Assembly: GCA_046754285.1 (NCBI GenBank)
Contig: JBHHVJ010000008.1
Coordinates: 20,659 to 84,658 of the forward strand
Direction: 5' to 3'
Length of the DNA: 64,000 nucleotides
DNA from: Myxococcota bacterium
Lineage (GTDB): Bacteria; Myxococcota_A; UBA9160; SZUA-336
Below, piece after piece: positions 20,453-38,403 of the stretch (its first letter is position 1; each line of letters begins with the position of its first letter). The notes under the pieces were generated by a model. That model saw nothing but the letters and a program-made list of their open reading frames with translations. It was not told the DNA's origin and ran no database searches. A program made the translations under genes and the position numbers.

Positions 20453-21151
20453 CTAGCGCGGTGTGATCAGCGACGTGTGAACCCATCCCACGCGACCGAT
20501 GGAGGTACGCACGAGTGTCCAGTCCCCCATCTTTCGCTCGGGGTAGACCGGCGTTCGCCGCGCGAGGATCTGGAGCACCGGCTCCTGCTTCGAGGGACCT
20601 TGCCTGAGCAGGACGCGCTCCCTGCGGATGAACCGCACGCCCGGGCTCTTGCGGGCTGCGTCGGCCTCGCGAATCAGCTCCTCGGCGATGCGCTCCGCCC
20701 GCGCGCCGAAGAAGATCGCGGAGCCGAGGTGCCCCGCCTCGATCTGGCGCTCGGCCTCCTCGAGCTTCCGCTGGGCTTCGAGGACCGTGTCCGCGCGCCA
20801 GGGTGCTTCCCTCGCGGCTCGCTCGACACGAATCCGTGCTTCGGCCAGAGACGAGACCGCATCGGCGAGGGAGTGGTGCCCGCGCAGTCCAGACTCGGCG
20901 GTCACCAACGCGTCCTCGGCCTGCGCGAGGTCCGCCTGGAGGCGCTTGATCTCGTACGCCATTCGCTCGATCCGTTCGATCTGGGCGCGCTGGTAGACGG
21001 CCTGATCCGGAGCTGTAGGAGGCCTCGATGGCTGCCAGAGGCCACTGAGCAGGCCCGTGCCCGAGCCCGTGCAGGCTGCGAGCAGCACGCAGAGTATCGG
21101 GAGGGCGCGCGGGAGCGCGCGGCGATGCGGGATGCTGGAAAGCGATCTCAT
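20453..21151 (-). CDS. Lipoprotein with coiled-coil and C-terminal bacterial SH3 domain
   Basis: LLAAC lipobox; LRQGPS...GDWTLVRT...GWVH. Confidence 0.75.
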   Translation of the reverse strand: MRSLSSIPHRRALPRALPILCVLLAACTGSGTGLLSGLWQPSRPPTAPDQAVYQRAQIERIERMAYEIKRLQADLAQAEDALVTAESGLRGHHSLADAVSSLAEARIRVERAAREAPWRADTVLEAQRKLEEAERQIEAGHLGSAIFFGARAERIAEELIREADAARKSPGVRFIRRERVLLRQGPSKQEPVLQILARRTPVYPERKMGDWTLVRTSIGRVGWVHTSLITPR

Positions 21152-21224
21152 CCTGGCTGGCTCGGGGGGCGACGTGGGCCGCCCGGAGAGACCTATCGGC
21201 GCCCCACCTGGGGCCTTGACCGGA

Positions 21225-22652
21225 TCAGCGGCCGCGGCGTTGGAGGGGGTTCACGCTCGTAAAGCGCCGTCGCTCCTCCGAACTCGGCGGATCGCTGCGC
21301 ACCTCGAAGGACTCGCGCAGCCAGCCCCCCTCACCGGCCACAAAGAAGCTCTCCGCCACCGGCAGAATCGTGCCGAAGCCCTTGCCGCTCCCGGCCCAGC
21401 GGACGGCGAGCGGGTCGTCGCCACTGAAGCGACCGACGAAGATCCCCACCTCCTTGATCGCCTCGTTCGCCTTGCGTGTGATCAGGTAGAGGGGCGCAAG
21501 CGTCAGTGCATCGATGTAGAGAGTGAGGGAGGCGATCGGCCCCTCCGGTCTCTTGCGCGCGCCCCTCAGAACCACGGCGCGGCGGATCTCCCAGCGGCCG
21601 TTCGCGACCGAGAGGCCGCTCGGCCCGTACGATCGATCCGCATTCGCAGGGTATCCAAAGTAGTCGGCGTTGATCGGCGCCAGCACATCCCGACTGCGCA
21701 GCAGTTGGAAGCGCCAGGCGTTGGGGCGGAGGATGAGGCCGACGAAGCCGCGCCGGCTGTGCTCGGCCGCGCTGATCTGGACGTCGGGTGTGCCACCGCT
21801 CTGGTCCGGCAGGTTCAAGCTCCCCCCCCCGGCCTGCTGACCACGCGTGTACGTGGGCACGAACAGGCCATCGAGAGTGGTCAGCGCTGCACGTTTGACT
21901 CGGCGAGCGTCGGGAAGATAGACGAACACGTCGTCGGATCGATTGGCCTTCCAATCGCTCTCGCTGCGGCGGATCTGGCGCCACGCGAGACCGCGCGCCA
22001 TCGCTGGACGCAGGAATCGTCCCCCGGCCCAGAAGCGAACCCCGTTCGACCCTCCGTCGGCACCGGGGTAGCCGTGCATCGGCAGCAGGAAGAAGGAACC
22101 CTCGAAGCGTTCGGTCTTTCGTCCACGCCGGAGAATGTGGATGATTCTGAAATCACCGCGCAGGCCGGCTCCGAGGTAGCGGTAGCGATGGCTCCACGCC
22201 CAGCGCATTCCTGCGTCGGGGGCGTGATCGGGGATCGCCCCCGGATCGAACGGCAGCCCCTCGCCGTCGAAGCCGTGCAATCCGCCGTCGGCATCGAGCG
22301 TAACCCGGCCGGCGTTCGCGAGCGTGGCCGCACGGAAGGCCTCCGGCGCGGGGTAGCGCCGATGGCAGGGCCCCACACGGATCTCCATGCCCTCGTAGAA
22401 GAACTCGGCGCGGTGCTGCCAGACCTCGGGCGGGAGATGGTCCCGGAGACGCCCGAGCTGCCCGTGCTCCACGGTCGAGCCCGGCTCGAAGGACGGTGGG
22501 GACACGTCCTCGTCCCCCGGTCTCCCCGAGTCCGGCAGGCTGTAAGGGGGACAGCTCCCCGCCGGCGGAACCTCCACGGCCGCGCTCGGGAAGGCTCCGA
22601 GCCAGACGAGCAGCCCGAGCCAGGAGGCCGTTCGTCGCAGACGCTCAGGCAT
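21225..22652 (-). CDS. DUF1329-like exported protein (outer-membrane lipoprotein-sorting-like)
   Basis: Signal peptide; GEGLPFDP, DDVFVYLPDARRVKR, WEIRRAVVL, TLYIDA; start MPERL at 22652 inferred. Confidence 0.7.
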   Translation of the reverse strand: MPERLRRTASWLGLLVWLGAFPSAAVEVPPAGSCPPYSLPDSGRPGDEDVSPPSFEPGSTVEHGQLGRLRDHLPPEVWQHRAEFFYEGMEIRVGPCHRRYPAPEAFRAATLANAGRVTLDADGGLHGFDGEGLPFDPGAIPDHAPDAGMRWAWSHRYRYLGAGLRGDFRIIHILRRGRKTERFEGSFFLLPMHGYPGADGGSNGVRFWAGGRFLRPAMARGLAWRQIRRSESDWKANRSDDVFVYLPDARRVKRAALTTLDGLFVPTYTRGQQAGGGSLNLPDQSGGTPDVQISAAEHSRRGFVGLILRPNAWRFQLLRSRDVLAPINADYFGYPANADRSYGPSGLSVANGRWEIRRAVVLRGARKRPEGPIASLTLYIDALTLAPLYLITRKANEAIKEVGIFVGRFSGDDPLAVRWAGSGKGFGTILPVAESFFVAGEGGWLRESFEVRSDPPSSEERRRFTSVNPLQRRGR

Positions 22653-22884
22653 CGCGAGGCTCCCGGAGCAGCTGGACACGCTCGATTCCCTCGTGCGGAA
22701 ACGCGTAGCCGGTCGCGTCACAGTCGCCATAGCGCTCCGGACGCGAGGAGGTGAGCACCGCGCAGACCACCTCGCGGCGGTCGTAGGTGAGCACACGTGC
22801 CACAAGGACTTCGCCGTCTCGGGTGTGGATCCGGATCGGGCGTCCCGTCCTGGAAGCCTCGATCACCTCGCTGGGAACCGACAT
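22645..22884 (-). CDS. Small hypothetical protein (79 aa)
   Basis: MSVPSEVIEASRTGRPIRIHTRDGEVLVARVLTYD... with AAGGAG RBS; overlaps the DUF1329-like gene start. Confidence 0.65.
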   Translation of the reverse strand: MSVPSEVIEASRTGRPIRIHTRDGEVLVARVLTYDRREVVCAVLTSSRPERYGDCDATGYAFPHEGIERVQLLREPRDA

Positions 22885-22960
22885 CTCACGCTCCTTCCGT
22901 GACCCGCTCCGCTTGGACGCCCGTGAACCCGTCCGGCTTCGGGGCGACGTCGGGCGGCGG

Positions 22961-23752
22961 CTACATCTCGGCTGGCCCCCCGGCGCTCGCCGCCAGGACT
23001 CGCAGCGCCTCGTCGTGCAAGCGGCCATTCGTGCTGACCAGGCTCCCCGCGTACACCGATCGCTCTCCGCTGACGGACGTGGCCCTTCCGCCCGCCTCCT
23101 CGACCAGCAGGACCAGGGGTGCCACATCCCAGGGAGAGACGACGGGGTCGACCGCGATCTCACCTGCACCTTCCGCCACCAGCACGTGCTGGTAGAAGTC
23201 CCCGAAGCCCCGCTGCCGCTCGGTCCGTCGCGCCAGCTCGAGCACGCCGGGGACGCCCTCCGAGCCCTCCACGCCCCCGAGGCTGCCATGAAAGAGCTGT
23301 GCGCGCGCCAGGACGCTCCCGGCCGAGACGCGCAGGGGCCGGGAGCCCCGCCGGGCTCCGGAGCCTCGCGCGGCGCTCCAACGAGTGTTCAGCGCCGGAG
23401 CACTGACGACACCCGCGACCAGCTCTCCCCGCTCCTCGATCGCGAGGAGTGTGGCGAAGATCGGAATGCCCCGAACGAAGTTTCGCGTGCCATCGATCGG
23501 GTCGAGGATCAGACGCCGCTCTGCACCGGCCGCACTCTCCCCCTGCTCCTCACCGAGGACCCCCAGCTCGGGATGCTGACGTGCCACCCTTTCCCGAACG
23601 ATCTCCTCGATTCTGAGGTCTGCTTCGCTGACAGGTGTCCGGTCGGACTTCTCCGAGACGCGAAGCTCCGCGGAGCGGAAGTACCGCAGCGCGATCGGGT
23701 CCGCGGTATCGGCGATCTCCTCCAGGAAGCGGAGCCAGGCGAGCGCATCCAC
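22961..23752 (-). CDS. hisN: Histidinol-phosphatase, inositol monophosphatase family
   Basis: KSDRTPVSEAD, LGEEQG, LDPIDGTRNFVRGIP, RGFGDF, WDVAPL. Confidence 0.85.
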   Translation of the reverse strand: MDALAWLRFLEEIADTADPIALRYFRSAELRVSEKSDRTPVSEADLRIEEIVRERVARQHPELGVLGEEQGESAAGAERRLILDPIDGTRNFVRGIPIFATLLAIEERGELVAGVVSAPALNTRWSAARGSGARRGSRPLRVSAGSVLARAQLFHGSLGGVEGSEGVPGVLELARRTERQRGFGDFYQHVLVAEGAGEIAVDPVVSPWDVAPLVLLVEEAGGRATSVSGERSVYAGSLVSTNGRLHDEALRVLAASAGGPAEM

Positions 23753-23761
23753 AGCCTGAGC

Positions 23762-25258
23762 TTAACCGGCGACCGCGATCCTGTCCGGCGAGCCCTCGGC
23801 CCTGTCGAGGGCGGACTGCGCGAGTGCGAGCAGCGACGCGGCATCGAGCGCATCCTCGTGGGGGCGGGTGACGGCGATGCCGATGCAGATCTTGCAGAGC
23901 AGCGGGCCGGCTCGGGTCTCCAAGGCGCGCTCCTCCACCCCGAAGAGGATCCGCTCGGCTGCGCGCAGCAGGTTGTTCGCCGAGCAGCCGGGCGCCAGAA
24001 GAGCGATCTGGTCCTCGGTGACACGGGCTCGCTGGTCCCCCTGACGCGTGAGCTTCGCGACCCGCTCCGCGACCTGCTGAATGCCCTCCAGGGCCGTTTC
24101 TTCCCCCTCGTGCTCCACGATCATCTTGTAGCTCAGCACGCGGATCAGCAGCACACCGATCGGACGGTGAATCTGACGTGCGCGCTCGTGATAGCGCTCG
24201 AGCAGCCGTGTGAAGGCGTTGGCGTCCGGGAGCCCGGTCTCCTCGTCGAGGGGGAGCGCCTCTTCGCCTTCCTGGAGATCCCCGAAGGCGCTCCGTGCAC
24301 TCGAGAGCGCCTCCGCGAGCTCGCGCGCCGACTGGTCGGCCTCGAGCGCGATCCGGCTGAGATGCTGGTTGGCGCGGACGAGCAGATCCTCGTAGCTGAG
24401 CATCTGACCCGCCGGGATCTCGAAGCAGGCCGCCGCGTCGCGGAGCTCATCGGGCAGCTCGCTGACCACGCTGCGCGCGACAGCCGGCGCGATTCCGGTC
24501 AGCTCCGCCACACGCTGCTCGAGCTCTCCGATGGCGCCTGCGAAGCCTTCGACGGTGAGCGCCCGCGCGATCTGCCAGGCCGCATGGAGGATCCGAACGT
24601 TCTGACCGAGCTCGTCATCGCGCCGGGCCGCCTCGGCGTCGTGATGTTGGGCGATCTGCTCACGAAGCCGCTCGGGAAAGCTCCAGCGCTCCAGCAGAAG
24701 ACCCCCCACACGCGCGTGATCCGTGGCGAAGGCGTCCCGCTCGAGCGCGCCCAGGTCGCCTTCGCCCGCGTGGAAGCGCTGCAGGACCGCGGCGTAGTCG
24801 GGAAGCTGGTCGAAGAGCAGCAGCACTCCGCAGTCGGCGAGGAGGCCGGACAGGAAGGCCTCCTCGGGATCCCAGCCCCCGACCTCAGCGGCGAGCCGCC
24901 GGGACGCCAGCGCGTTCATCAGCGAGGTGCGCCAGAAGTTGTCGAGCAGCTCTTCCCCGCTGCCATCACCTCGCAGTGCGGAGAGCAGGGAGAAGGAGAG
25001 GGCCACGCTTCGGACGGCCTTGAGTCCCAGATAGAGCAGCGCGTCGTCGATCGAGGTGATCTCTCTGGACAGGCCGTACATGGCGGAGTTGATCAGCCGG
25101 ATCACCTTGGCCGCCAGGGCGGGATCCACGCGGATCGCCTCGGCCAGGTCGCCGAACTCGACCTCGTCATCACCGAGCAGCTCCAGCAGGCGCTGCGCGA
25201 CGCGGGGGATCGTAGGAAGCGATGGCGAGTCCAGCAGCCTCTGCTCGAGCTCGTTCAT
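23762..25258 (-). CDS. HDOD domain protein with degenerate GGDEF domain
   Basis: [29 protein letters not shown]...W; GGDEF site reads RVTEDQI, with an RQGD I-site; start MNELEQ at 25258. Confidence 0.85.
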
Positions 25259-25281
25259 CGTGCGGCGACCCTCCGGAGTTG

Positions 25282-25309
25282 CGATCGGCGCACGGTCCGC
25301 CGGAGTTGA
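25282..25309 (-). promoter_or_regulatory. Putative sigma28-type promoter of the HDOD-GGDEF gene
   Basis: Minus strand TCAA-N16-GCCGATCG. Confidence 0.6.
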
Positions 25310-25455
25310 GTGCGCCCTCCCGAAAACCGAATATAATCGGGTCCCGGCGCTGGAGCCGAGCTCTTGCGGGCCTCGGAGGTCGACGCGGGGGTGCGAGCGG
25401 GGGGATCCGGCGGGGGTCGGGATCTTTCCCCACGAAGCGAAGCCAGAGGAAAGCC

Positions 25456-27456
25456 GTGTCGTCTCCATCTTCGGAAGCCATCGCGCAGGCCGCCCGGGCG
25501 ATCCGCATCCTGACGATCGATGCCGTTCGCAGGGCGGGCTCCGGTCACGTCGGTCTGCCGCTGGGCTGTGCAGAGCTGGCCGTCGTGCTCTTCAGTGAGT
25601 TCCTGCGCTTCGACCCGGACCATCCCGACTGGCCTGATCGCGACCGCTTCGTGCTCTCGGGCGGACACGGCTCGATGCTGCTCTATTCCCTGCTGCATCT
25701 GACGGGGTACGCCATCGGGCTCGAGGACCTCCGACGCTTTCGCCAGCTCCACTCGATCACGCCGGGGCATCCCGAGCACGGTCTCACCCCGGGCGTCGAG
25801 GCGACGACCGGGCCCTTGGGCCAGGGCCTCGCCAACGCGGTCGGCATGGCGCTTGCGGAGCGGATCCTGGCCGCGCGCTTTGGAAGCGAGCTCGTCGATC
25901 ATCGAACTTACGTGCTCGCGAGCGACGGGGACATGATGGAGGGTGTGGCGGCCGAGGCGGCCTCGCTCGCTGGGCACCTCGCACTCGGGCGGCTCGTGGT
26001 TCTCTACGACGACAACCGAATCACGATCGATGGCCCGACGAGGCTGTGCTTCTCGGAGTCGGTGGCGCAGCGCTTCGACGCCTACGGCTGGAACGTGCAG
26101 CAGATCGATGGTCAGGCCCCCGCCGAGGTCCGTGCGGCGCTCGCGGAGTTGAAGAGTGACGAGGCCCGCCCGCACCTGATCGTGTGTCGGACGCACATCG
26201 GCTTCGGCTCTCCGGCCGTCGACAGCGCCGGGGCCCACGGCACGCTCGGCGACGAGCGCACCGAGCAGACGCGCGAAAACCTGGGCTGGGAGCTGCCCCC
26301 GCTCGAGCTGCCCGATGGGGTCGGCGAGGTTTTCCGCGCCAACGCCGAGCGGGGTCGCCGCCTTCGGGAGAGCTGGGAGGCGCGTCGCGACCAGGCTCTC
26401 GAAGACCCCGGGCTCCGCGACCTCTGGCGGGCCATGCTCGAGGGGAGACTTCCGGAGGATCTTGGCGCCGTCTGGCCCGACTTCCGGGGAGGCGGACCGC
26501 TGGCGACGCGCAAGGCATCCGGCAAGATCCTGAACGCTCTGGCGCCGCATGTCCCCTCCCTGATGGGTGGGTCGGCGGACCTCGCTGGATCGAACGCGAC
26601 GCTACTCACCGATGAGAGCGCCGTCGAGCCCGGAAAGTTCCAGGGTCGCAATCTCTTCTTCGGTATCCGGGAGCACGGCATGGCGGCGATCGCCAACGGT
26701 CTGTCGCTGCACGGGGGGATTCGACCCTACATCGGTACCTTCCTGATCTTCAGCGACTACATGCGTCCGGCCCTGCGCATGGCGGCACTCATGGGAGAGC
26801 CCGTCGTGTACGTCTTCACGCATGACTCGATCTTCGTCGGGGAGGATGGGCCGACGCACCAGCCGGTGGAGCAGCTCGCGACGCTCCGGGCGCTGCCGAA
26901 TCTCTGGCTCTGGCGACCCGCCGACGCCCGAGAGACGGTGGCGGCGTGGCGGGCCGCGCTGCACCGCGAGGAGGGCCCGGTCGCCCTGGCCCTCACGCGC
27001 CAAGACGTGCCTGTGCTTGCGGGAGACGACATCGAAGCCTCGGCCGCCCGGGGCGCTTACGTCCTCCACCGTGAGCCCCGCGAGCCCCTGGAGCTCGTGA
27101 TCGTGGCTTCGGGCTCCGAGGTGCACGTGGCGCTCGAGGTGGCCGGCGCGCTCTCCGGTGAGGGGCACGCGGTGCGCGTGGTCTCCCTGCCGTGCCTCGA
27201 GGTATTTCGCGCACAGGAAGCGTCGTACCAGAGCGACGTGCTTCCGCAGGCTCCCCCCCGGCTGCTCGTCGAGGCCGGTGTGCCGCAGGGGCTCGCCGAG
27301 CTGACACGTCCCGGGGACCGCTTCCATGGAATGACGGGCTTCGGTGCCTCGGCGCCCTACGGCCCGCTGGCTCGTGAGTTCGGGTTCACGCCCGAGGCCC
27401 TGCTCCCGATCGCCCGCTCCCTGCTCTCCTCACGGGTCAGCGAAGGAGATCGCTGA
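25456..27456 (+). CDS. tkt: Transketolase
   Basis: [60 protein letters not shown]; GTG start inferred. Confidence 0.96.
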
Positions 27457-27513: not shown

Positions 27514-28002
27514 TCAGGCGTCGCCGAGTTCGCGCTCGAGCTGGATCTTCCGGATCGTGGTGAGCGCGAAGACGAGCAGACGGCCCTCGGCGTCCCGGAA
27601 GCGCGTCTCGACCAAGCAGGTGCGCTTGCGCTGGTGGATGAGCTCGCTCTCGATCTCGAAGCGCGGGCCGAGCACGGGCTCGAAGTAGTCGACGCGCATG
27701 TTCGTCGTGGCCAGCCAGTGGACCCGGGCCGGCCCGGCCGGCCGACCCCCGTGGATCGTGAACAGCGCCACGAAGTCCACGTAGGTCGGCGTGAAGCCCC
27801 CAAAGAGCTGTCCGCGGGGGTTCTTCACATGCTCAGGGAGGTGCGCGTCGATCCGCACGTAGCCCTCGCGCCGCTCGAGCAGCTTCCACTGGTAGGCCTC
27901 GAGAAAGTCTCCGGCCGGATGCCCCCGGGCCACGAGGCGTCCCGGCTCCGCATCCAGCCAGGCGCGCCGCCGCTGCTCCAGCGCGTCAGGCGCTTCGCTC
28001 AA
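27514..28002 (-). CDS. PaaI-family (hotdog) thioesterase
   Basis: NPRGQLFGG...YVD, ATTNMRVDYFEP; TTG start inferred. Confidence 0.8.
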   Translation of the reverse strand: MSEAPDALEQRRRAWLDAEPGRLVARGHPAGDFLEAYQWKLLERREGYVRIDAHLPEHVKNPRGQLFGGFTPTYVDFVALFTIHGGRPAGPARVHWLATTNMRVDYFEPVLGPRFEIESELIHQRKRTCLVETRFRDAEGRLLVFALTTIRKIQLERELGDA

Positions 28003-28231
28003 GTACACGTCCCTCGTCGTAGATCTTGACCACGCGCACGGCCCCCGGTGGCCCCACCTCCAGACAGAGCTCACAGAGCGTGCACTCGTCCACGTTCCGC
28101 GCGACGATCTCGAGCGTGCCGTCCGGTCGCGGCGCGAAGATCCCCACAGGACAGACCTCGCTGAGCTTCTGGACGGAGTCGCGATCCTGTTTCAGCGCCG
28201 TGCTCACCTCGATGTCGACGAAGAGCCCCAT
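27986..28231 (-). CDS. Ferredoxin (probably a single 4Fe-4S cluster)
   Basis: MGLFVDIEV...VCPVGIF...ECTLCELCL; GGAGG RBS. Confidence 0.85.
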   Translation of the reverse strand: MGLFVDIEVSTALKQDRDSVQKLSEVCPVGIFAPRPDGTLEIVARNVDECTLCELCLEVGPPGAVRVVKIYDEGRVLERSA

Positions 28232-28241
28232 GGCCGCCCTC

Positions 28242-29138
28242 CTACTGGATCCGCTCGCGGACGAGCGCGGGAATGTCTTCGATCCGCTCGGCCACCGCGA
28301 TCCCGGCTTCCTGGAGACGGGCGATCTTCTCGGCCGTCGTATCCGCCTTGCCCTCGACGATGGTTCCCGCGTGCCCGAAGCGCATGCCCGGCATCTCATC
28401 CATGAAGCGACCCGCCATGAAGGCTACGACCGGGAGCCGAGACTCGTTCTCGCGGACCCAGCGTGCGAGATCGGCCTCCATGCGCCCGCCGGGCTCGGAG
28501 TAGATGACGATGGCCTGCGTCGCCGGATCCGCCTCGAAGAGCGGCATGAGCTCGGCATAGGTCTGCCCGATGATCGCGTCACCCCCGATCGAGACGGCGG
28601 TCGACTGGCCCAGACCCGCGGCCGTGAGCGTGCTGCAGATCTCGGTCGTCATGCCGCCCGAGCGCGACATCACACCGACCGGACCGCGGCTGAACGCCTT
28701 GCGGGCGTCCTCGGCCCGACCGCCGAGATTGCCGACCTTGGCCTCCCCCGGCGAGAGCACCCCGAGGCAGTTCGGGCCGATGATGCGCGCGCCGCGCAGG
28801 CCCGCGAGCTCCACCATCTGCGCCACCTCGAAGCGCGGGATGTTCTCGGTGACAATCACCAGCAGCTTGATTCCCGCCTCGATGGCCTCGAAGACCGCGT
28901 CGCGGGTGAAGGCCGCTGGAACGGAGATCACCGTCGCGTCGACCCGCGTCTTGCGCGTGATGGCCTCCACGGTGTCGTGTACGGGCACGCCGTGCACCTG
29001 ACGCCCACCACGTCCCGGCGTGACGCCCCCGACGATCTTCGTGCCGTAGTCCAGCCCCTCTCGCGTCATCGTCACCGCTTCGCGGCCCGTGATGCCCTGG
29101 ATGATGACCGTCGTCTCGTGACTGATGAGGATCGCCAT
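28242..29138 (-). CDS. ADP-forming acyl-CoA synthetase alpha subunit (SucD-like, with ACL/citryl-CoA synthetase-type motifs)
   Basis: QGITG, GGVTPG, IIGPNCLG, SRSGGM, FGHAG phospho-His. Confidence 0.85.
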   Translation of the reverse strand: MAILISHETTVIIQGITGREAVTMTREGLDYGTKIVGGVTPGRGGRQVHGVPVHDTVEAITRKTRVDATVISVPAAFTRDAVFEAIEAGIKLLVIVTENIPRFEVAQMVELAGLRGARIIGPNCLGVLSPGEAKVGNLGGRAEDARKAFSRGPVGVMSRSGGMTTEICSTLTAAGLGQSTAVSIGGDAIIGQTYAELMPLFEADPATQAIVIYSEPGGRMEADLARWVRENESRLPVVAFMAGRFMDEMPGMRFGHAGTIVEGKADTTAEKIARLQEAGIAVAERIEDIPALVRERIQ

Positions 29139-29139
29139 C

Positions 29140-30345
29140 TCAGGCTCCGATCCGTGCGACGGCCCGTCCCGCCGCGTCGTACATCGAGACGCTGCGGTCG
29201 CAGTACGGCACGCCGTAGCGCTCCAGGATCTTGAATCCGTCCCGCTCCCAGGATCCGGGAATGCGGAAGATCGCGATCTTCTTGCTCGGATCGCCTCCGC
29301 TCTCGATCACGCCCTTGATCACCCCACGGGCCACGAGATCGACGCGCGTGTTCGAGACCACGTTCATCATCACCGCGACCTTCTGGACGCCGGGCTTGGA
29401 CAGGATCAGCTTCGTCAGCTCGCAGACCTTGCTCACGCTCGGATTGCCGCCGATCTCGCAGTAGTTTGCGGGTCGGCCGCCGTGCTTGCGCACGGCATCG
29501 AAGAGCGTGAGCGAGCCGCCGCCGGCACCGATGATCAACCCGAGGTTGCCATCGAACTCGGTGACGTTTCCGGCCACGCCTCGATGGTCGGCTGCGTTGA
29601 TTGCGGCTCCGCGCAGCTCGAACTCCGTCGGCGGTCGAGGCTGCCGCGTCTCGTCTTCTCCGATGCTGAGCTCGCGGAGGATGTCCTTCTGCTGGCCGCG
29701 CGCCTCGGCCTCCATGTCGACGTGGCCGTCCACGACTACGAAGGAGCCGTCGGCCAGCTTGCCGATCGGATTGATCTCGGCCAGGGTGAGGCCGTAGCGC
29801 TGGAAGATCCTCGCCAAGGTCGCGGCGATCCGGGTCAGGCGCGTCAGGTCCGTAGCGCCGATGCCGAGTGCCGCCACGAGCTCCTTCGCGCGGTGCTCCG
29901 AGAACGGGAGCAACGTCGAGAAATGCCGCTTGCTGATGTGCTCCGGGTGCTGCTCGGCGACCTCCTCGATGTCGATTCCGCCCATGTCCGAAAGGATCAT
30001 CACGGGCTTCTTGGCGATCCCGTCCCAGGTCACGCCCAGGTAGTACTCCTGCGTGATCGGCTGCCGGGCTTCCACCAGGACGCCGCGTGGCTTCTGGCCC
30101 CCGATCTCGAGCGCGAGGATCTTCCGGGCCGCGGCTTCGGCCTCCTCGGGAGTCTCGGCGAAGAGCACCCCCCCGGCCTTCATTCGGCCTCCGCTGAGCA
30201 CCTGCGACTTCAGCACGACGGGTTCGCCGATCTCCCGTGCGATCTCCCGCGCTGCGGGCGCGCTCTCCGCCACGCGAGATCCCGTGGGCAACGGAAGTCC
30301 GTGGCGCGCGAAGAGCTGCTTGGCCTCGCACTCGTAGAAGCGCAT
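29140..30345 (-). CDS. ADP-forming acyl-CoA synthetase beta subunit (SucC-like ATP-grasp, with ACL/citryl-CoA synthetase-type motifs)
   Basis: KSQVLSGGRMKAGG, GGIDIEE, EINP; GAGGGS and ANYCEIGGNP. Confidence 0.85.
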   Translation of the reverse strand: MRFYECEAKQLFARHGLPLPTGSRVAESAPAAREIAREIGEPVVLKSQVLSGGRMKAGGVLFAETPEEAEAAARKILALEIGGQKPRGVLVEARQPITQEYYLGVTWDGIAKKPVMILSDMGGIDIEEVAEQHPEHISKRHFSTLLPFSEHRAKELVAALGIGATDLTRLTRIAATLARIFQRYGLTLAEINPIGKLADGSFVVVDGHVDMEAEARGQQKDILRELSIGEDETRQPRPPTEFELRGAAINAADHRGVAGNVTEFDGNLGLIIGAGGGSLTLFDAVRKHGGRPANYCEIGGNPSVSKVCELTKLILSKPGVQKVAVMMNVVSNTRVDLVARGVIKGVIESGGDPSKKIAIFRIPGSWERDGFKILERYGVPYCDRSVSMYDAAGRAVARIGA

Positions 30346-30347
30346 TC

Positions 30348-31376
30348 TCAGGCGACCCGCTTCATCAGCTCGAGAATGTTGTAGCCGGTGACCTCTTCGC
30401 TCTTGCGGGCCATCTCATTGAGGAACGCGTTGTCGACCTTGCCGGCCTGCACGCCCTTGGCCAGCTCCATCAGCACCCCCTTGATCGTGGCCTCGTCGTG
30501 GAACTTGCCGTACTTGGGGTCGTAGACGGCGCCGCCACCCTGCTCGTGGTAGTAGACGATCGCGTGCTTCGCTTCCTCGATGTCCTCTGCGGTGGGGGAG
30601 AAGACCTCGTTGGCGATCTCTGCCTGCTGCGGGTGGATCACCCACGTTCCGTCCATGCCCAGATCCCGGGAGCTCTCGTTCTTCTCGCGCATCTCTCGCT
30701 GGATCTCGGCGATCCGGTCCTCGGGCATGTCGCCACGCCAGAGCTTGAGCCAGGCGTTGTCGATCGCGTGCAGGCCACAGGCCTTGGCGGCCACGACCGT
30801 CGCCTGCTTGGCGTAGTGGAAGTTATGATTCTGGTTTCGGACGTTCTCCTTGACGCCCATGGCCGAGGCGAAATCGGCGATCCCGAAGATCAGGCCGGCC
30901 ATGCGCTCCGATGCACGCGCGATCGCGTAGGCGTTCACGATGGCGATGGGGGTCTCGATCAAGGCCTCGATCCGCACGGTCGTCGTCCACCCCGCCTGCT
31001 TCTCGTATCCGTCGAGCAAGCGCGAGAGGTGCACGATGTCCTCGGGCTCGTTCGTCTTGGGCAGGATGATTCCGTGGAAGCGATCCACGGCTCCCGTCAT
31101 GATCGCGTCGAGATCACCGAGAAAGTACTTGGACTTGATGTTGTTCGGACGGATCACCACGACCCGGTCGCCGAAGTCGATCGTATTGAGCGCCTCGACC
31201 ATCACCTTGCGTGAGGGCTCGCCCTTGAACTCGTAGGGGCAGGCATCCTCGAAGTCGGCCATCACGTGGTCGACGGGTGCGCGGGCGGCCTTCTTGTGCA
31301 TCTCGATCTTGTGGCAGGGGTAGGTCAGCTCGGTACGTGGAATCACCAGACGGCCGAGCTTCTCCAGGTAGAACAT
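30348..31376 (-). CDS. CoA-ester lyase, HpcH/HpaI aldolase-citrate lyase beta (CitE/Mcl) family
   Basis: ADFEDA, IRPN, ILPK, LIETP, FGIADF, GMDGTWVIHPQQ, FSP, DEA. Confidence 0.9.
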   Translation of the reverse strand: MFYLEKLGRLVIPRTELTYPCHKIEMHKKAARAPVDHVMADFEDACPYEFKGEPSRKVMVEALNTIDFGDRVVVIRPNNIKSKYFLGDLDAIMTGAVDRFHGIILPKTNEPEDIVHLSRLLDGYEKQAGWTTTVRIEALIETPIAIVNAYAIARASERMAGLIFGIADFASAMGVKENVRNQNHNFHYAKQATVVAAKACGLHAIDNAWLKLWRGDMPEDRIAEIQREMREKNESSRDLGMDGTWVIHPQQAEIANEVFSPTAEDIEEAKHAIVYYHEQGGGAVYDPKYGKFHDEATIKGVLMELAKGVQAGKVDNAFLNEMARKSEEVTGYNILELMKRVA

Positions 31377-31559
31377 GGCGCTCTCCTCGTGAGGGGGGAC
31401 ACGGGGGATGACCTCGGATCATCCCAGCACGATCGCCCCCCTTTTTACTGCAAAGCGCGACTCGCAGCAACGCGCGCGGCTCCGCTTCGCTCGTGGCCGT
31501 GGCTGCCCCGGGGAGCGTCTGGTAGGGTTGCTGCGGGCGGGGGAGCAGCCGGAGCATCG

Positions 31560-32858
31560 ATGGGAAAGAGCGAGGTCTTCGCGGACGCCGTGGCCAGGCT
31601 GGAGCGGCTGGGCAAGCAGGCCCGTGTGGCCGAGGAGGTGATCGCCGCCCTTCGCATGCCGGGAGCCGTGATGACGGCTGCGCTGCCCGTTCGTATGGAC
31701 GACGGCTCCACGCAGTATTTCGAGGCCTATCGCTGTCGCTACAACGACGCACTCGGGCCCACGAAGGGAGGAATCCGCTTCCACCCCGAGGTGTCGCTCG
31801 AGGAGGTCCAGGCCCTGGCGCTCTGGATGACGATCAAGTGCGCAGTCGTCGGCCTGCCCTACGGTGGAGCCAAGGGGGGGGTCACCGTGGATCCCAAGCG
31901 TCTGTCCAGGCTCGAGCTCGAGCGTCTGTCGCGGGCGTACGCACGGGCGATGGCACGCTTCCTCGGCCCCGATGTCGACATCCCCGCGCCGGACGTCTAC
32001 ACGAACGCGCGGATCATGGGCTGGATGCTCGATGAGTACGAGGTCATCCATGGGCACAAGGCGCCCGGCGTGATCACGGGCAAGCCGCTGCACCTCGGGG
32101 GCAGCCAGGGACGCGACGAGGCCACCGGTCGCGGGGCGTTCCTGACGATCCAGGAGCTGGCGCGGGTCCGAGGGATCGAGGCGGCCAAGACGCGCGTCGC
32201 GGTGCAGGGCTTCGGGAACGCCGGGTACCGCGTGGCCTCTCTGCTGAGCGAGGCGGGCTACCGGGTTGTGGCGGTGAGCGACTCGAAGGGCGCGATTCTC
32301 TCCGACGAGGGGTTCGACATCGAGAGCCTGCAACAGAACAAGCAGGCGACCCGGCAACTCAAGGGTGTGTACTGTGAGGGCTCCGTCTGCCACGTGATTG
32401 AGCACGAGAAGATCACCAACGAGGAGCTGCTCGAGCTCGACGTCGACATCCTGATCCCGGCCGCCCTGGGGGGCGTGATCGGGCCCTGGAACGTCGACCG
32501 GATCCGCGCCCCCATCATCGTCGAGGTGGCCAACGGCCCCGTGCTCGGCGAGGTCGACGAGGTCCTGCGCGGGCGGGGCAGGCTCGTGGTGCCCGACGTC
32601 CTGGCCAACGCGGGAGGTGTCACGGTGAGCTACTTCGAGTGGGTCCAGAACCGAGGCGGCTACCCCTGGACGCTCGAGAAGGTCCGCGGGCGGCTGGCCG
32701 AGATCCTCGAGCGCGCCTTCGGCGAGGTTTGGAGCCTGGCCCAGTCGGAGGACGTCTCCCTGCGCAGCGCGGCCTACACACTCGCGCTGCGGCGCATCGA
32801 GGCGGCCTTTCGCGCCCACGGCACGCGCGAGTTTTTCCAGGAACACGATCCGGGATAG
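31560..32858 (+). CDS. gdhA: Glu/Leu/Phe/Val dehydrogenase (small glutamate dehydrogenase)
   Basis: GPTKGGIRFHP, MTIKCA, GGAKGG, DIPAPDVYT, VQGFGNAG, EVANGP, NAGGVTVSYFEWVQN. Confidence 0.93.
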   Translation: MGKSEVFADAVARLERLGKQARVAEEVIAALRMPGAVMTAALPVRMDDGSTQYFEAYRCRYNDALGPTKGGIRFHPEVSLEEVQALALWMTIKCAVVGLPYGGAKGGVTVDPKRLSRLELERLSRAYARAMARFLGPDVDIPAPDVYTNARIMGWMLDEYEVIHGHKAPGVITGKPLHLGGSQGRDEATGRGAFLTIQELARVRGIEAAKTRVAVQGFGNAGYRVASLLSEAGYRVVAVSDSKGAILSDEGFDIESLQQNKQATRQLKGVYCEGSVCHVIEHEKITNEELLELDVDILIPAALGGVIGPWNVDRIRAPIIVEVANGPVLGEVDEVLRGRGRLVVPDVLANAGGVTVSYFEWVQNRGGYPWTLEKVRGRLAEILERAFGEVWSLAQSEDVSLRSAAYTLALRRIEAAFRAHGTREFFQEHDPG

Positions 32859-35148: not shown

Positions 35149-35460
35149 ATGGAGCCGATTCGCAGCGAGTACGAAGACGATCCGGACATGCTCGATATCG
35201 TTCAGGAGTTCGCCGCTGAGCTCCCCGAGCGGGCCGCTGCGCTCGAGGCGTGCCTCGGTGGCGGGGATCTCGCAACCCTTCAGACCCTGGCGCACCAGCT
35301 CAAGGGCGCCGGCGGGGGGTACGGCTTCCCGCAGATCACCGGAGCGGCCGCCCAGCTCGAGTCGGCTCTGAAAGCCGGGGCCCAAGCGACGGAGCTGAAG
35401 AAAGATCTCGACGCGCTCTGCGAGGTGCTGCGTGCCGTCAGGGTCACGGAGGCGCGTTGA
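35149..35460 (+). CDS. Hpt (histidine phosphotransfer) domain protein
   Basis: MEPIRSEY...LAHQLKGAGGGYGF. Confidence 0.88.
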   Translation: MEPIRSEYEDDPDMLDIVQEFAAELPERAAALEACLGGGDLATLQTLAHQLKGAGGGYGFPQITGAAAQLESALKAGAQATELKKDLDALCEVLRAVRVTEAR

Positions 35461-36425
35461 ACCCCGAGCTTCCAAATCCGAACCGCGTGCTCGTGATCGA
35501 CGACGAGGAGTCGATTCACCGGCTCGTGGTCGCTCGCCTGCGCAGCGAGGGCATCGAGGTCACCGGCGAGCTGGATGGGGAGCGCGGCATCGAGCGCGCG
35601 CTCCAGGACACCCCCGATCTCATCCTGCTCGACGTCGGCCTGCCCGAGATGGACGGCTTCGAGGTCTGCCGGAAGCTCAAGGCGCACCCCACGACGCGCA
35701 ACATCCCGGTTGTCTTCCTCACGGGCGAAGCGGCCACCGATGCCAAGGTGCGGGGTCTGGATCTCGGTGCCGTGGACTACGTGACCAAGCCTTTCGATCA
35801 AATCGAGCTTCGCGCGCGCGTGCGGGCGGCCCTGCGCACGAAACGACTCCAGGACATTCTCGAGCAGCAGTCGTTCCTCGACGGTCTGACCGGGCTGTGG
35901 AATCGGCCCTACCTGGATCGCCGCCTCGAGTCCGAGCTGAACGTGGCTCTCCGCTACGGCCGACCGCTGAGCCTCGTGATGGTCGATCTGGACCAGTTCA
36001 AGGAGATCAACGACACGCACGGTCACCTCTTCGGAGACGTGGTGCTCCAGGGTGTGGCCGAAGCGTTGCGAACCTACGCACGCAGCTCGGACATCGTCGC
36101 GCGCTACGGCGGGGAAGAGTTCGCCGTGCTGCTGACCGACACCGGCCTCAAGGCCGGTGCCTTCGTCGCCGAGCGGCTGCGGGCCTCGGTGGAGACCAAG
36201 CGCTTCGAGACTCACGGGCAGCCGGTGACGGTCACCGCGAGCTTCGGCCTGGCGTGCAGCGACGAGGTGAACGGGCCGCTCACACCGGAGACGCTCGTGG
36301 GGGCGGCCGATCGCGCGCTCTACGCGTCGAAGGACGCCGGGCGCAACTACGTTCACCTGCTCAAGCGAAGCGAGACGATTGCGATCCCGCGCGGCGATCC
36401 CGCGCTACCCCCCACGCGGAAGTAG
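35457..36425 (+). CDS. Response regulator diguanylate cyclase (receiver + GGDEF)
   Basis: VLVIDDE, LILLDVGLP, YVTKPF; DGLTGLWN, RSSD I-site, RYGGEEF; TTG start overlaps the Hpt stop. Confidence 0.92.
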   Translation: MNPELPNPNRVLVIDDEESIHRLVVARLRSEGIEVTGELDGERGIERALQDTPDLILLDVGLPEMDGFEVCRKLKAHPTTRNIPVVFLTGEAATDAKVRGLDLGAVDYVTKPFDQIELRARVRAALRTKRLQDILEQQSFLDGLTGLWNRPYLDRRLESELNVALRYGRPLSLVMVDLDQFKEINDTHGHLFGDVVLQGVAEALRTYARSSDIVARYGGEEFAVLLTDTGLKAGAFVAERLRASVETKRFETHGQPVTVTASFGLACSDEVNGPLTPETLVGAADRALYASKDAGRNYVHLLKRSETIAIPRGDPALPPTRK

Positions 36426-36628
36426 CGCGCGATCATCCACGTTCCCGGCCAGCGGCCTCGAGCGTGGGGCGGAGGTGGGGTGGTAGGGTAGAGGCGAGCT
36501 CCGGCTTCCCTTCCGTCCCGAGCCGTGCCCCTCGCCCGGCGGCCACGGGGCGGGCTCGGCGCTCCCGGCCTTGTCCTCGCGGCCGGTCGCGCTGGAAGGC
36601 CTGAGGCCCCCGAGGACGAGGAGCCAGC

Positions 36629-37015
36629 ATGGGAATCTCGGTCCACGCCCACCACATGTCGTTTCCGGTCAGGGATCTCGAGCAATCGCGCGAGTTCTAT
36701 GAGGGGGTTCTGGGGCTCCGGACCATTCCACGCCCCGATCTCGGCGCCCTCGGCGGTGTGTGGTACGCCGCCGGGCCCTGCGAGGTGCACCTGATCGAGC
36801 TCCCTCCGGGTGTGCAGGTTGGTGCGCCTCCACCGGCGCTTACCCCGCTCGCGCGCCATGCAGCGTTCGCCATCCCCGACTACGACGAGGCCCTCGCGGT
36901 GCTGCGTGCTCGGGGCCTGGAGATCCTCGAGAGCCGCGCGGGTGGGCAGATGTGGGTGCAGGACCCCGATGGCCACGTCATCGAGCTGATCGTGCCACGT
37001 GCGCGCGCGGGCTGA
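36629..37015 (+). CDS. VOC/glyoxalase family protein
   Basis: HHMSFPVRDLEQSREFY, HAAFAI, DPDGHVIEL. Confidence 0.88.
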   Translation: MGISVHAHHMSFPVRDLEQSREFYEGVLGLRTIPRPDLGALGGVWYAAGPCEVHLIELPPGVQVGAPPPALTPLARHAAFAIPDYDEALAVLRARGLEILESRAGGQMWVQDPDGHVIELIVPRARAG

Positions 37016-37035
37016 GGCCCCCGCGAAGGGACGGG

Positions 37036-37395
37036 CTACGTGCTCGACTTGAGCGCCCGGTGGATGCTGGCCTTGAGGACCTTGCGTGTGCGGGCGTCCA
37101 TCGCGAGAAAGGTCACGCCGAACCCCCGCTCGGTCTCGCGCACCACGCTGCCTCGGATTCGGAGTGGCAAGGTGTCCGGCTGGAGCGAAAAGCTCAGACT
37201 CACCTCGCTGCCCACCGGCAGCCGGGGATCGGCATCGTCGATCAGGGCCCCGCTGGCCGAGATGTTTCGCACCACGCCCTGCCCCTTGAGCAATCGCTCC
37301 TCGTACTGCGTCTCGAAGTGCACCTCGACCCGAGGAGCCTTGCGTTGATCGGCTCCCTCCTCGGGGATGACGTCGGCGGCCTTGGTGTCGCTCAC
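37036..37395 (-). CDS. Stand-alone PilZ domain protein
   Basis: QRKAPR (RxxxR), NISASG, GSVVR...GFGVTF. Confidence 0.88.
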   Translation of the reverse strand: MSDTKAADVIPEEGADQRKAPRVEVHFETQYEERLLKGQGVVRNISASGALIDDADPRLPVGSEVSLSFSLQPDTLPLRIRGSVVRETERGFGVTFLAMDARTRKVLKASIHRALKSST

Positions 37396-37416
37396 ATGGA
37401 GTTCCAGGCTGCCTCC

Positions 37417-37444
37417 TGATCGGAGGTGTGGGGTGCCTCCTTGA
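37417..37444 (-). promoter_or_regulatory. Putative sigma28-type promoter of the PilZ gene
   Basis: Minus strand TCAA-N16-TCCGATCA. Confidence 0.6.
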
Positions 37445-37458
37445 GCCGGACGCGGGGC

Positions 37459-38337
37459 TCAGGCGCGCCCTGCGTTCTCCCGCAGGTGCTGGAGCACCCG
37501 CCGCGTGGCGGGCGACCGATTGAGCGTGTAGAAGTGGATGCCCGGCGCGCCACCCGCGAGCAGCTCGCGACACTGGCGCCGCGCGTACTCGACCCCGATG
37601 TCCTCGACCGCTCGTGGCTCGTCCTGCACGCGCTCGAGGGGCTCGAGCAGCTCGGGTGGGATCCGTGAGCCGTTCATCGCGGCCATCCGCTGGATGCCGC
37701 GGAAGCTCGTGACCGGCATGATCCCCGGCACGATCGGTACCTCGATGCCGATCGCGCGGGCGCGTTCGACCAGCGCAAAGTAGTCCTTGTTGCAGAAGAA
37801 GAGCTGGGTGATCAGGAACTCGCAGCCCGCTTCCACCTTGCGTTTGAGGTGGAGCAGGTCGGTCTCGAGATCCGGAGCCTCGGGGTGCTTCTCGGGATGG
37901 GCGGCCCCGCCCACCGCGAACGCGAAGCGCTTGCGTACGAAGGCCACGAGATCGGCCGCATGCGGGAGCCACTCCTCACGGGGCACGCTGCTCTGCGACG
38001 CCTCCGGCGGGTCGCCCCGCAGGGCCAGGATGTTCTCGAGGCCTTGAGACGCGAGGGTCTCGAGCACCGTGGTCAGCTCCTCGCGCGTGGCATCGACACA
38101 GGTCAGGTGGGCCATGGCCTCGAGCCCCAGCTCACGCCGGATGCGACAGACGATCTCCACCGTGAGGTGGCGGCGGGAGCGATCCAGCGGGTAGGTCACG
38201 GAGACGAAGTCGGGACCGAGCCGGCGAAGCTCGTCGAGCGTTTGCAACAAGGCGCGGATGCCGTTCTCACCCTTGGGAGGAAAGAACTCGAAGGAGAACA
38301 CGGGCGCGCCTGCCTCGTAGAGCTCCGGAATCCGCAT
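37459..38337 (-). CDS. metF: 5,10-methylenetetrahydrofolate reductase
   Basis: FSFEFFPPK, FVSVTY, AHLTC, LALRGDPP, HPEKHPE, ITQLFF, HFYTLN. Confidence 0.95.
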   Translation of the reverse strand: MRIPELYEAGAPVFSFEFFPPKGENGIRALLQTLDELRRLGPDFVSVTYPLDRSRRHLTVEIVCRIRRELGLEAMAHLTCVDATREELTTVLETLASQGLENILALRGDPPEASQSSVPREEWLPHAADLVAFVRKRFAFAVGGAAHPEKHPEAPDLETDLLHLKRKVEAGCEFLITQLFFCNKDYFALVERARAIGIEVPIVPGIMPVTSFRGIQRMAAMNGSRIPPELLEPLERVQDEPRAVEDIGVEYARRQCRELLAGGAPGIHFYTLNRSPATRRVLQHLRENAGRA

Positions 38338-38395: not shown

Positions 38396-38403
38396 TATCG
38401 TTC

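Follow-up and report, generated by a model that had tools for sequence, protein, structure and literature searches.

Results

A five-gene operon built around a CoA ligase

The window analysed here is a 64,000-nt stretch of contig JBHHVJ010000008.1 from a Myxococcota bacterium, and the operon with which we are concerned spans positions 27514–31376 of it. Its five genes, all on the minus strand, encode an acyl-CoA lyase, the beta and alpha subunits of a coenzyme A (CoA) ligase, a small iron-sulfur (Fe-S) protein and a hotdog thioesterase. The ligase and the Fe-S protein represent a widespread, uncharacterised three-component variant of the family that comprises succinyl-CoA synthetase (SCS) and citryl-CoA synthetase (CCS), and this variant is coupled to malyl-CoA-type lyases.

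The lyase gene (30348–31376) encodes a 342-aa protein of the CitE/HpcH superfamily with an HpcH_HpaI domain, which we refer to as type 1. It is followed by the ATP-grasp beta subunit (29140–30345; 401 aa; ATP-grasp_2) and by the alpha subunit (28242–29138; 298 aa; CoA_binding and Ligase_CoA), which carries the CoA-binding domain and the phosphohistidine. The Cys-rich, single-cluster Fe-S protein of 81 aa (27986–28231) starts at an ATG preceded by a GGAGGG ribosome-binding site, and the PaaI/4HBT-type thioesterase (27514–28002, in an open reading frame extending to 28074) has 162 aa when counted from the TTG at 28002. The first three junctions span 2, 1 and 10 nt and the last two genes overlap slightly, which confirms the tightly packed, co-oriented order of lyase, beta, alpha, ferredoxin and thioesterase given in a preliminary description of this DNA. 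The operon lies between a convergent transketolase gene and a divergent glutamate dehydrogenase gene. In a second genus of the family (locus L093, G063:C43), the identical five-gene order recurs together with its flanks (transketolase, glutamate dehydrogenase and a short-chain dehydrogenase/reductase).

The ligase differs from succinyl-CoA synthetase and malate thiokinase

All the features of the superfamily are found in the two subunits, namely an ATP-grasp beta subunit (Pfam ATP-grasp_2, 2e-47), a CoA-binding alpha subunit (CoA_binding, 1.5e-23, plus Ligase_CoA) and a GHAG phosphohistidine loop, in which His256 of the FGHAG motif is invariant in 30 of 30 alpha orthologues. The preliminary description held that the motifs of the ligase differ from those of SucCD, and every motif that it quoted is present in the translations: GAGGGS, PANYCEIGGNP and SNTRVD in beta, and SRSGGM and FGHAG in alpha. 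It also recommended looking for a separate canonical sucCD. This was found on another contig (C49) of the same genome, in an icd-mdh-sucC-sucD cluster, and its products carry the canonical forms NGAGLAM, ANFLDVGG, SRSGTL and MGHAG.

Against the curated NCBIfam models, beta scored 235.7 bits for sucC (NF001913; cut-off, 370) and alpha 289.6 bits for sucD (NF004230; cut-off, 336), both below threshold, and the score of beta for mtkA, the malate thiokinase model (NF010647), was far below it (158.2 bits; cut-off, 604). Beta and alpha are 31% and 44% identical to the SucC and SucD of their own genome, and 30–31% and 39% identical to the named serine-cycle MtkA and MtkB of Paracoccus and Ruegeria plasmids. 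Among solved structures, a phmmer search with beta placed the Thermus SCS beta subunit first (3ufx; 2.7e-53, 184.6 bits) and the Hydrogenobacter CCS subunit CcsA second (6hxq; 5.6e-47, 163.8 bits), with ATP-citrate lyase (ACL) far behind (1.3e-17). Alpha matched SucD (2yv2; 6.7e-77) ahead of CcsB (2.2e-50).

A residue alignment revealed that the C-terminal half of beta shares with CcsA (6hxq_B) an insertion that has no counterpart in SucC or MtkA, and that the two proteins have the motifs RPPTExE, DHRGxAG, GGGS, PANYxEIGGNP, ILSKPG and NTRxD in common, none of which occurs in SucC or MtkA; in the named MtkA of Paracoccus and Ruegeria, the motifs are instead of the SucC type. The insertion and motifs also align with the CcsA-like protein P0156, which itself matches 6hxq_B at 4.3e-86. 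Beta and P0156 are 34% identical over the N-terminal part and 38% over the C-terminal part; for SucC and MtkA, the values are 29–38% and 27–32%, with more gaps.

We placed beta in a tree of 92 rows (IQ-TREE quick, LG+G4), consisting of six references and 86 full-length sequences (355–450 aa) from the 150 best representatives of a search over 1.84 billion proteins; the other 64 representatives were fragments or of odd length and were left out. NCBIfam has no CCS model by which the representatives could be labelled, and the tree includes no named CcsA or AclB; the CCS/ACL kin are represented by a 7-row clade around P0156. Two other proteins, P0232 and P0221, were tested as CcsA markers and rejected. 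Beta falls within an 8-row clade (SH-aLRT 100) nested in a 20-row clade (SH-aLRT 99). A 45-row clade (SH-aLRT 99) that contains the genome's own SucC, the Klebsiella SucC and both MtkA references excludes it, and within this clade the Paracoccus and Ruegeria MtkA proteins adjoin proteobacterial SucC, far from the window's beta. Together with the sub-threshold scores, this placement bears out the earlier view that the ligase is something other than an ordinary SucCD or MtkAB. The proposed citrate-type kinship of beta fared less evenly: the CCS-type insertion and motifs are real, but in the best tree the 7-row CcsA/AclB-kin clade (SH-aLRT 99, P0156 included) is separate from the clade of beta. 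Because the two are separate and yet their joining was not rejected by the approximately unbiased (AU) test (delta lnL 20.8, p-AU 0.287), beta appears to represent a third, CCS-like lineage, for which a sister relationship to CCS/ACL is possible. Judged by these sequence comparisons, the ligase is a distinct clade of the SCS/CCS superfamily of ADP-forming CoA ligases.

Another SucCD-like pair (annotated as 'ATP-grasp domain-containing protein' and 'CoA-binding protein') was seen at positions 4001–6030 of locus L086, on a plasmid of Azospirillum sp. TSH58, flanked by a tripartite tricarboxylate transporter, an aldehyde dehydrogenase and a molybdopterin oxidoreductase. In the tree, it takes a basal position in the SucC clade.

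Beta, alpha and the Fe-S protein form a fixed triad

A word-indexed protein search with beta returned 8000 matches, and the best 120 were mostly 74–81% identical and labelled either 'ATP-grasp domain-containing protein' or 'succinyl-CoA synthetase beta/citryl-CoA synthetase large subunit'. Relatives of beta occur in at least 572 species genomes, 572 of the 599 matched stretches in a species-representative collection encoding one; the carriers belong to Myxococcota, Binatia, Chloroflexota and Actinomycetota (Solirubrobacterales, Thermoleophilia), with some Spirochaetales. The locus counts given below refer to 80 beta loci kept from that collection, and a locus is said to have room for a gene where the stretch extends far enough to show it. 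The alpha gene follows beta in 70 of the 73 loci with room, and the Fe-S gene follows alpha in 67 of 70; the 3 exceptions lack alpha too. Beta, alpha and the Fe-S protein are thus a fixed triad. At L015, L025 and L035, beta was seen with neither a downstream alpha nor a downstream Fe-S gene despite room, and at L025 and L035 a gene resembling that of mesaconyl-CoA hydratase (Mch) lies upstream of the lone beta.

The small protein matched ferredoxin families of Pfam only below threshold (Fer4_21, 19 versus 35 bits; Fer4_7, 18.2 versus 27; Fer4, 16.7 versus 21.1). Nevertheless, its four cysteines (C27, C50, C53 and C56, arranged as CP...CxxCxxC) are invariant in 71 of 71 orthologues, whose median length is 79 aa, and constitute ligands for one cluster rather than two. 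An AlphaFold2 model (pLDDT 94.2) matched ferredoxins and Fe-S domains with modest scores, within the range that the search tool describes as a common arrangement. The best match was the Fe-S domain of archaeal RNA polymerase subunit D (Foldseek E-value 7.6e-3; VIA Z 6.9, root-mean-square deviation (rmsd) 3.3 Å, 63 residues aligned). The named neighbours of the protein in the Atlas, at 0.90–0.91, are FixX/ETF-QO-like and serve as a lead only.

How might this protein be related to the ligase? No fusion of the two was found at E <= 1e-8 among 109 candidates, which is weak evidence. We modelled the complex of beta, alpha and the Fe-S protein from our own 30-row alignments with a 4Fe-4S ligand riding along. 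The median score was 0.80 (best of three controls, 0.00). In a calibration that applies only roughly here, our alignments and riding ligand differing from those of the tool, 58 of the 80 solved complexes attained this mark, as did 2 of the 110 mismatched pairs. The pLDDT of the partners was at least 88 and the contacts agreed by at least 96% across runs. The predicted interface involves residues 303–305, 334–347 and 369–376 of beta, immediately after GGNP and on NTRVD, both of which are family-specific motifs, and residues 17–26 of alpha, in the N-terminal CoA-binding domain. This is presumably where the acyl/CoA site lies in the SCS architecture. The Fe-S protein is therefore modelled as docking on the C-terminal domain of beta beside the CoA-binding loop of alpha, and is a probable third subunit of the ligase. 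As for the cluster, our guess is that it has a structural function at the face of the active site or senses redox state there. We know of no Fe-S subunit on an enzyme of the SCS type, and our literature searches found none described. The preliminary description had taken the ferredoxin as a hint of coupling to a 2-oxoacid:ferredoxin oxidoreductase. We find no support for this idea: the protein is a constant partner of the ligase with predicted binding to it, and the two POR_N genes of the genome lie on other contigs (C19 and C75), unlinked to the operon.

The ligase is tied to lyases of the malyl-CoA type

The lyase matches HpcH_HpaI at 6.4e-27 (94.7 bits; cut-off, 25), and its best solved relatives are malyl-CoA lyases (MCLs; 5ugr, 2.9e-28; 4l9y, 1.8e-26). 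It scored below every named equivalog to which it was compared, at 130.2 versus 443 bits for citE (7.6e-38), 101.2 versus 375 for RipC/Ccl and 69.6 versus 500 for the haloarchaeal MCL. A lyase of the CitE superfamily is present at 56 of the 80 beta loci, and at 36 of the 43 that extend for at least 5 kb on both sides. At 52 of these 56 loci it is of a second type (type 2), closely related to the trifunctional Chloroflexus and Roseiflexus enzyme that acts on malyl-, beta-methylmalyl- and citramalyl-CoA (4l7z, 3.4e-151; 6kin, 8.1e-151), and at the remaining 4, all from Chloroflexota, it is of the window's type 1 and 68–72% identical to the window lyase.

The two types exclude each other. The four type-1 Chloroflexota genomes and the window's own genome lack type 2, and among the own genome and 40 relatives the type-1 genomes (G000, G063 and G055) are among the few without it. 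Every one of the 29 beta-positive genomes in this 41-genome set has one type or the other. The window lyase is only 27–30% identical to the Chloroflexus-type MCL homologues. According to PMC3832036, Arg92, Glu157 and Asp184 of MCL bind substrate and Mg, and their equivalents are kept in all 4 type-1 lyases that we aligned to type-2 homologues; type 1 also has a D-E-A-T lid motif. Because the MCL residues are kept, the best relatives are malyl-CoA lyases and the two types are mutually exclusive, type 1 seems to have replaced MCL without a change of function.

In the lineage of the window, the type-1 gene was inserted immediately upstream of beta. Its second-position G+C (0.36) is below that of its neighbours, the stretch at 30–32 kb has a lower G+C (0.656), just 3 of the 41 own-lineage genomes carry type 1, and the nearest kin outside the family are those of the Chloroflexota (68–72%). 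These observations suggest that the lyase gene was acquired by transfer. A further locus of the own genome (L087, G000:C3:72000-87000, positions 3159–8212) has a B12-dependent methionine synthase gene and, directly after it, genes for a MaoC hydratase (151 aa) and a CitE-like lyase (293 aa), the latter two resembling an Ich/Ccl-like pair without a CoA transferase.

The thioesterase is restricted to the nearest relatives

The thioesterase matches Pfam 4HBT (3.1e-6, 27.8 bits; cut-off, 20.6), its matches to TIGR00369 and PRK11688 are below cut-off, and its Atlas neighbours are 4HBT/PaaI clusters (0.93–0.97), where the 162-aa form starting at TTG 28002 is present letter for letter. Since it is found only in the nearest relatives (2 of the 80 loci, L003 and L008, plus L093), we regard it as accessory. 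The conservation of the neighbourhood, which the preliminary description had listed for checking, holds for the triad and, in L093, for the full five-gene order, but not for the thioesterase, which is lineage-specific.

Neighbouring pathway genes and genome context

Genes for enzymes acting on C4 and C5 CoA esters accompany the triad. Mch (PF19315) is encoded at 27 of the 80 loci and a single MaoC protein at 14 more, and an acyl-CoA dehydrogenase with an N-terminal extension, resembling methylsuccinyl-CoA dehydrogenase (Mcd), at 11. The window itself encodes an Mcd-like orthologue of this dehydrogenase (46041–47645, plus strand; 534-aa open reading frame) 15 kb from the operon. The protein is extended at its N terminus by about 135 aa, and among solved structures it is closest to a (2S)-methylsuccinyl-CoA dehydrogenase (8ciw, 3.1e-124). 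Its identity is 53% to the acyl-CoA dehydrogenase between hydratase and lyase at L046 and 59–66% to those that directly adjoin beta in loci of Binatia. It and the operon may serve one pathway.

Crotonyl-CoA carboxylase/reductase (Ccr), the marker of the ethylmalonyl-CoA pathway used here, was over cut-off in 25 of 50 triad genomes, comprising all Chloroflexota and most Actinomycetota examined. Its gene lies directly upstream of beta in the Myxococcota locus L026 (~4573–5760) and 14–25 kb from beta in Actinomycetota. A 653-aa fusion of MM_CoA_mutase and a B12-binding domain, which is Ecm-like, is encoded near the triad in the Binatia locus L011 (7832–9793). No Ccr over cut-off was found in the own genome or in most Myxococcota. 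The search for ethylmalonyl-CoA genes advised in the preliminary description gave a negative answer for this marker in the own genome, where the Mcd-like protein would then act outside that pathway.

Among the beta-positive relatives, Mch was detected in 19 of 29 and not found in 10, the own genome included. The hydratase is therefore optional, and the simplest universal pair is the ligase with a lyase acting on a hydroxyacyl-CoA. Canonical MtkA was over cut-off in 0 of 15 triad genomes. Malate synthase was not found in 4 of 5 genomes tested, including the own genome, and all 5 gave no true isocitrate lyase. The triad loci that we annotated showed no CoA transferase. Methylaspartate ammonia-lyase (PF07476) was found in 0 of 51 genomes, a weak absence because no positive control matched.

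Other features of the window

The open reading frames of the flanking transketolase (25222–27456; 744 aa) and glutamate dehydrogenase (31266–32858; 530 aa) have N-terminal extensions of about 80–100 aa relative to the copies of the second genus (659 and 431 aa), and the true starts probably lie further in. A promoter scan of the operon region gave 0 promoter-like sites, and a terminator scan gave two terminator-like matches on the opposite strand, at chance level. The region is contained in 4 DNA read sets from one hydrothermal-vent metagenome study, and no RNA set is listed. Elsewhere, the stretches 18251–25468 and 35250–45870 contain many cyclic di-GMP signalling genes (GGDEF, HDOD-GGDEF, response regulator-GGDEF and two PilZ) and a type IV pilus cluster, which includes a PilY1-like gene (39771–43193) and N-methyl pilin-like genes (44680–45870).

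Discussion

Proposed function of the operon

What reaction might this operon catalyse? Our leading, still tentative, proposal is that it encodes a malate (or citramalate/C5-dicarboxylate)-CoA ligase coupled to an MCL-type lyase, the substrate being suggested by the gene neighbours. Beta and alpha would act as an ADP-forming CoA ligase using ATP-grasp and phosphohistidine chemistry, with the Fe-S protein docked on them as modelled. The ligase would interconvert (S)-malate, most likely, and perhaps (S)-citramalate with the CoA thioester, and the adjacent lyase would interconvert that thioester with acetyl-CoA and glyoxylate (or pyruvate), giving the net reaction malate + ATP + CoA ⇌ acetyl-CoA + glyoxylate + ADP + Pi. 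In the forward direction, this would be the malate thiokinase/malyl-CoA lyase step of the serine cycle; in the backward direction, it could serve as an ATP-conserving substitute for malate synthase in genomes without one. The PaaI-type thioesterase might provide an irreversible pull, when one is required, by hydrolysing the thioester.

Several observations led us to this proposal. First, the MCL-type lyase is the one universal partner of the ligase, and what best fits all contexts is a step that converts malate or citramalate and the corresponding CoA ester into each other and so feeds or drains the lyase. Gene order, family placement, conservation of the triad, the genomic tie to MCL-type lyases and conserved catalytic residues are observed; binding of the Fe-S protein is predicted by the model, and substrate, direction and cluster role are what we propose. 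Second, the triad co-occurs with ethylmalonyl-CoA genes, with Mcd, Mch and the Ecm-like mutase beside it and Ccr in half of the triad genomes. In that pathway, the sole step of a ligase or thioesterase type is the interconversion of malyl-CoA and malate. Third, the proposal also rests on missing alternatives, namely the lack of canonical MtkA, the predominant absence of malate synthase and the absence of true isocitrate lyase in the genomes tested. Fourth, the ligase is a clade of its own, and beta has motifs in common with CcsA-like proteins, which act on a 3-hydroxy-3-carboxy acid. The preliminary description had envisaged a hybrid module that activates and then cleaves citrate or a related hydroxy acid. 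Because the ligase is tied to CitE-superfamily lyases, activation followed by cleavage of a hydroxy acid is still the best reading, and this outline stands; citrate as the leading substrate does not, since the Chloroflexus-type MCL, Mch and Mcd partners point to malate or a C5 acid.

A number of points weigh against our proposal. The CCS-like motifs of beta also occur in several other unnamed, uncharacterised clades and are for this reason no certain sign of a hydroxy-acid pocket; some, moreover, fall inside the modelled interface with the Fe-S protein, whose score is subject to the rough calibration given above. The whole-chain fold search of beta has an SCS on top (3ufx, 2.8e-35), with 6hxq at rank 15 (4.6e-30; rmsd about 8 Å, arising from domain orientation), and does not separate SCS from CCS. 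L003 and L008, the closest loci in the public genome collection, have no adjacent lyase, although their genomes contain a type-2-like MCL match elsewhere. The ethylmalonyl-CoA argument cannot be extended to the own genome, in which Ccr is missing. A ligase and a thioesterase acting on the same thioester would be futile if active simultaneously. Finally, a C5 acid (mesaconate, methylsuccinate, itaconate or citramalate) explains the Mch and Mcd neighbours more directly than malate does.

Alternative substrates

The last point leads to the strongest alternative, which we consider possible although less probable than our own proposal. The ligase might activate a branched C5 dicarboxylate (mesaconate, methylsuccinate or itaconate), whose ester would pass through Mcd and/or Mch to beta-methylmalyl- or citramalyl-CoA; the lyase would then yield propionyl-CoA and glyoxylate or acetyl-CoA and pyruvate, and the ligase would replace the usual CoA transferase in a catabolic route. 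Besides the frequency of Mch, MaoC and Mcd beside the triad, this idea draws on loci of the Myxococcota type, in which Mch, ligase and MCL would make a complete three-step mesaconate pathway, on the Binatia, in which Mcd divergently adjoins beta, on the Mcd-like gene of the window and on the MaoC and CitE-like pair of the own genome, seen without a CoA transferase. Yet the lyase is present in all 29 beta-positive relatives and Mch is missing from 10 of them, the own genome included; Mcd, Mch and MCL are equally plain enzymes of the ethylmalonyl-CoA pathway, in keeping with the Ccr count; and methylaspartate as a source of mesaconate is unsupported, for the ammonia-lyase search gave no match, with the reservation on its positive control stated above.

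We think it unlikely that the operon encodes a redundant or specialised SCS, whose succinyl-CoA would be converted by the Mcd-like protein to fumaryl-CoA and then to malyl-CoA for cleavage by the lyase. The nearest named models and structures of both subunits are indeed those of SCS (2yv2 for alpha, 3ufx for beta), as is the top of the fold search, and the window's Mcd-like protein is closest to 8ciw; according to PMC10266731, the Mcd of 8CIW oxidises succinyl-CoA at 5.2 U/mg and an Mch hydrates fumaryl-CoA. However, the genome already has a canonical sucCD in its tricarboxylic acid (TCA) cycle cluster, both subunits are under the curated cut-offs with beta outside the SucC clade, the substrate-side motifs are unlike those of SucC, and neither a fixed Fe-S partner nor a linkage to lyases is a feature of SCS. 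A true citryl-CoA synthetase acting with a CitE-type citryl-CoA lyase, that is, a split ATP-citrate lyase, is very improbable: the CCS-type insertion and motifs, the AU result and the membership of citryl-thioester lyases in the CitE family (the citE model matches at 7.6e-38, though with 130 bits against 443) are outweighed by the position of beta in the best tree, by a lyase whose closest solved relatives are malyl-CoA lyases and not CitE, by the Chloroflexus-type MCL at 52 of the 80 loci, by neighbours that act on C4 and C5 CoA esters and by carriers mostly from lineages without sign here of a reductive TCA context.

Comparison with known systems

Our proposed malate-CoA ligase and MCL-type lyase resemble the MtkAB and Mcl enzymes of the serine cycle (sga-mtkA-mtkB-hpr-ppc on plasmids of Paracoccus aminovorans and Ruegeria conchae), in which a two-subunit ligase of the SCS superfamily is likewise tied to a malyl-CoA lyase and for which the same net reaction holds. 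In contrast to the window ligase, MtkA nests in the SucC clade, with SucC-type motifs and only 30–31% identity to the window's beta, and the window ligase has a third, Fe-S component; the lyases are also of other subtypes. The CcsAB and Ccl enzymes of Hydrogenobacter (6hxq), together with ATP-citrate lyase, share the two-step logic of activation and cleavage, on a 3-hydroxy-3-carboxy acid, and CcsA shares the C-terminal insertion and motifs of beta, a sister grouping not being rejected. The window ligase differs in that beta falls in a separate clade in the best tree and alpha is nearer to SucD than to CcsB; its partner lyase is a CitE/HpcH TIM barrel rather than citrate-synthase-like, and the window has an Fe-S partner and a context that points to C4/C5 acids. 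With SucCD, the window ligase shares the overall fold, the ATP-grasp beta and the CoA-binding alpha with its GHAG phosphohistidine, but it is set apart by scores below the cut-offs, its place outside the clade, other substrate-side motifs and the fixed Fe-S and lyase partners.

Glyoxylate assimilation in the 3-hydroxypropionate bi-cycle of Chloroflexus aurantiacus presumably involves Mcl, Mch and the CoA transferases SmtAB and Mct. Most triad loci contain a close homologue of the Chloroflexus MCL, and Mch is often nearby; unlike the Chloroflexus system, however, the loci that we annotated have an ATP-dependent ligase in the place of the CoA transferase, and the window has the other lyase subtype and no Mch that we could find. 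In the ethylmalonyl-CoA pathway, Mcl1 and the thioesterase Mcl2 together form an 'apparent malate synthase'. There, too, a lyase and the removal of the thioester lead to malate from glyoxylate and acetyl-CoA, and the window operon also includes a thioesterase in a genome without malate synthase; however, this thioesterase is a PaaI-type hotdog protein and not CitE-like, a reversible ligase is present as well, and Ccr is missing. The Chloroflexus MCL structures (4l7z and 4l80) are described in PMC3832036, the available parts of which, like those of PMC1403158, contain nothing on such a ligase.

Phrase searches of the literature for an itaconate-, mesaconate-, citramalate- or methylsuccinate-CoA ligase, or for a citramalyl- or itaconyl-CoA synthetase, returned none. 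The literature that we searched on citryl-CoA synthetase with CitE, malate thiokinase, C5-dicarboxylate clusters and Binatota does not describe the triad, supplements not being covered. In a Binatota survey (a preprint and its mBio version), 'mtkA/B' is reported in 98 genomes, and a serine cycle and an ethylmalonyl-CoA pathway are predicted.

Significance

We speculate, with considerable doubt, that the triad is a hitherto overlooked class of heterotrimeric, ADP-forming acid-CoA ligase with a single-cluster subunit of ferredoxin fold at the acyl/CoA site. With an MCL-type lyase, it would constitute a split 'ATP-malate (citramalate) lyase' and so correspond, for C4/C5 acids, to CCS with citryl-CoA lyase. 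Such an enzyme might be the mis-assigned malate thiokinase, or the ATP-conserving malate-synthase step, of pathways of the serine-cycle or ethylmalonyl-CoA type across Myxococcota, Binatia, Chloroflexota and Actinomycetota, and redox or oxygen gating through the cluster could apply.

Many genomes would be concerned: at least 572 species genomes in one collection encode the ligase, and thousands of metagenomic proteins share 74–81% identity with it. At present these proteins carry the labels 'ATP-grasp domain-containing protein' or 'succinyl-CoA synthetase', or mtkAB in KEGG-style surveys. Should our reading hold, a separate enzyme clade would link malate (or a C5 acid) to its CoA ester in these lineages. 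An Fe-S subunit would be unusual for the SCS superfamily and would open the possibility of redox control. Malate thiokinase and malyl-CoA lyase serve synthetic carbon-conserving pathways, for which a new natural variant could be useful. The finding would also affect how methylotrophy, acetate assimilation and glyoxylate metabolism are predicted for uncultured Binatia, Chloroflexota, Solirubrobacterales and Myxococcota.

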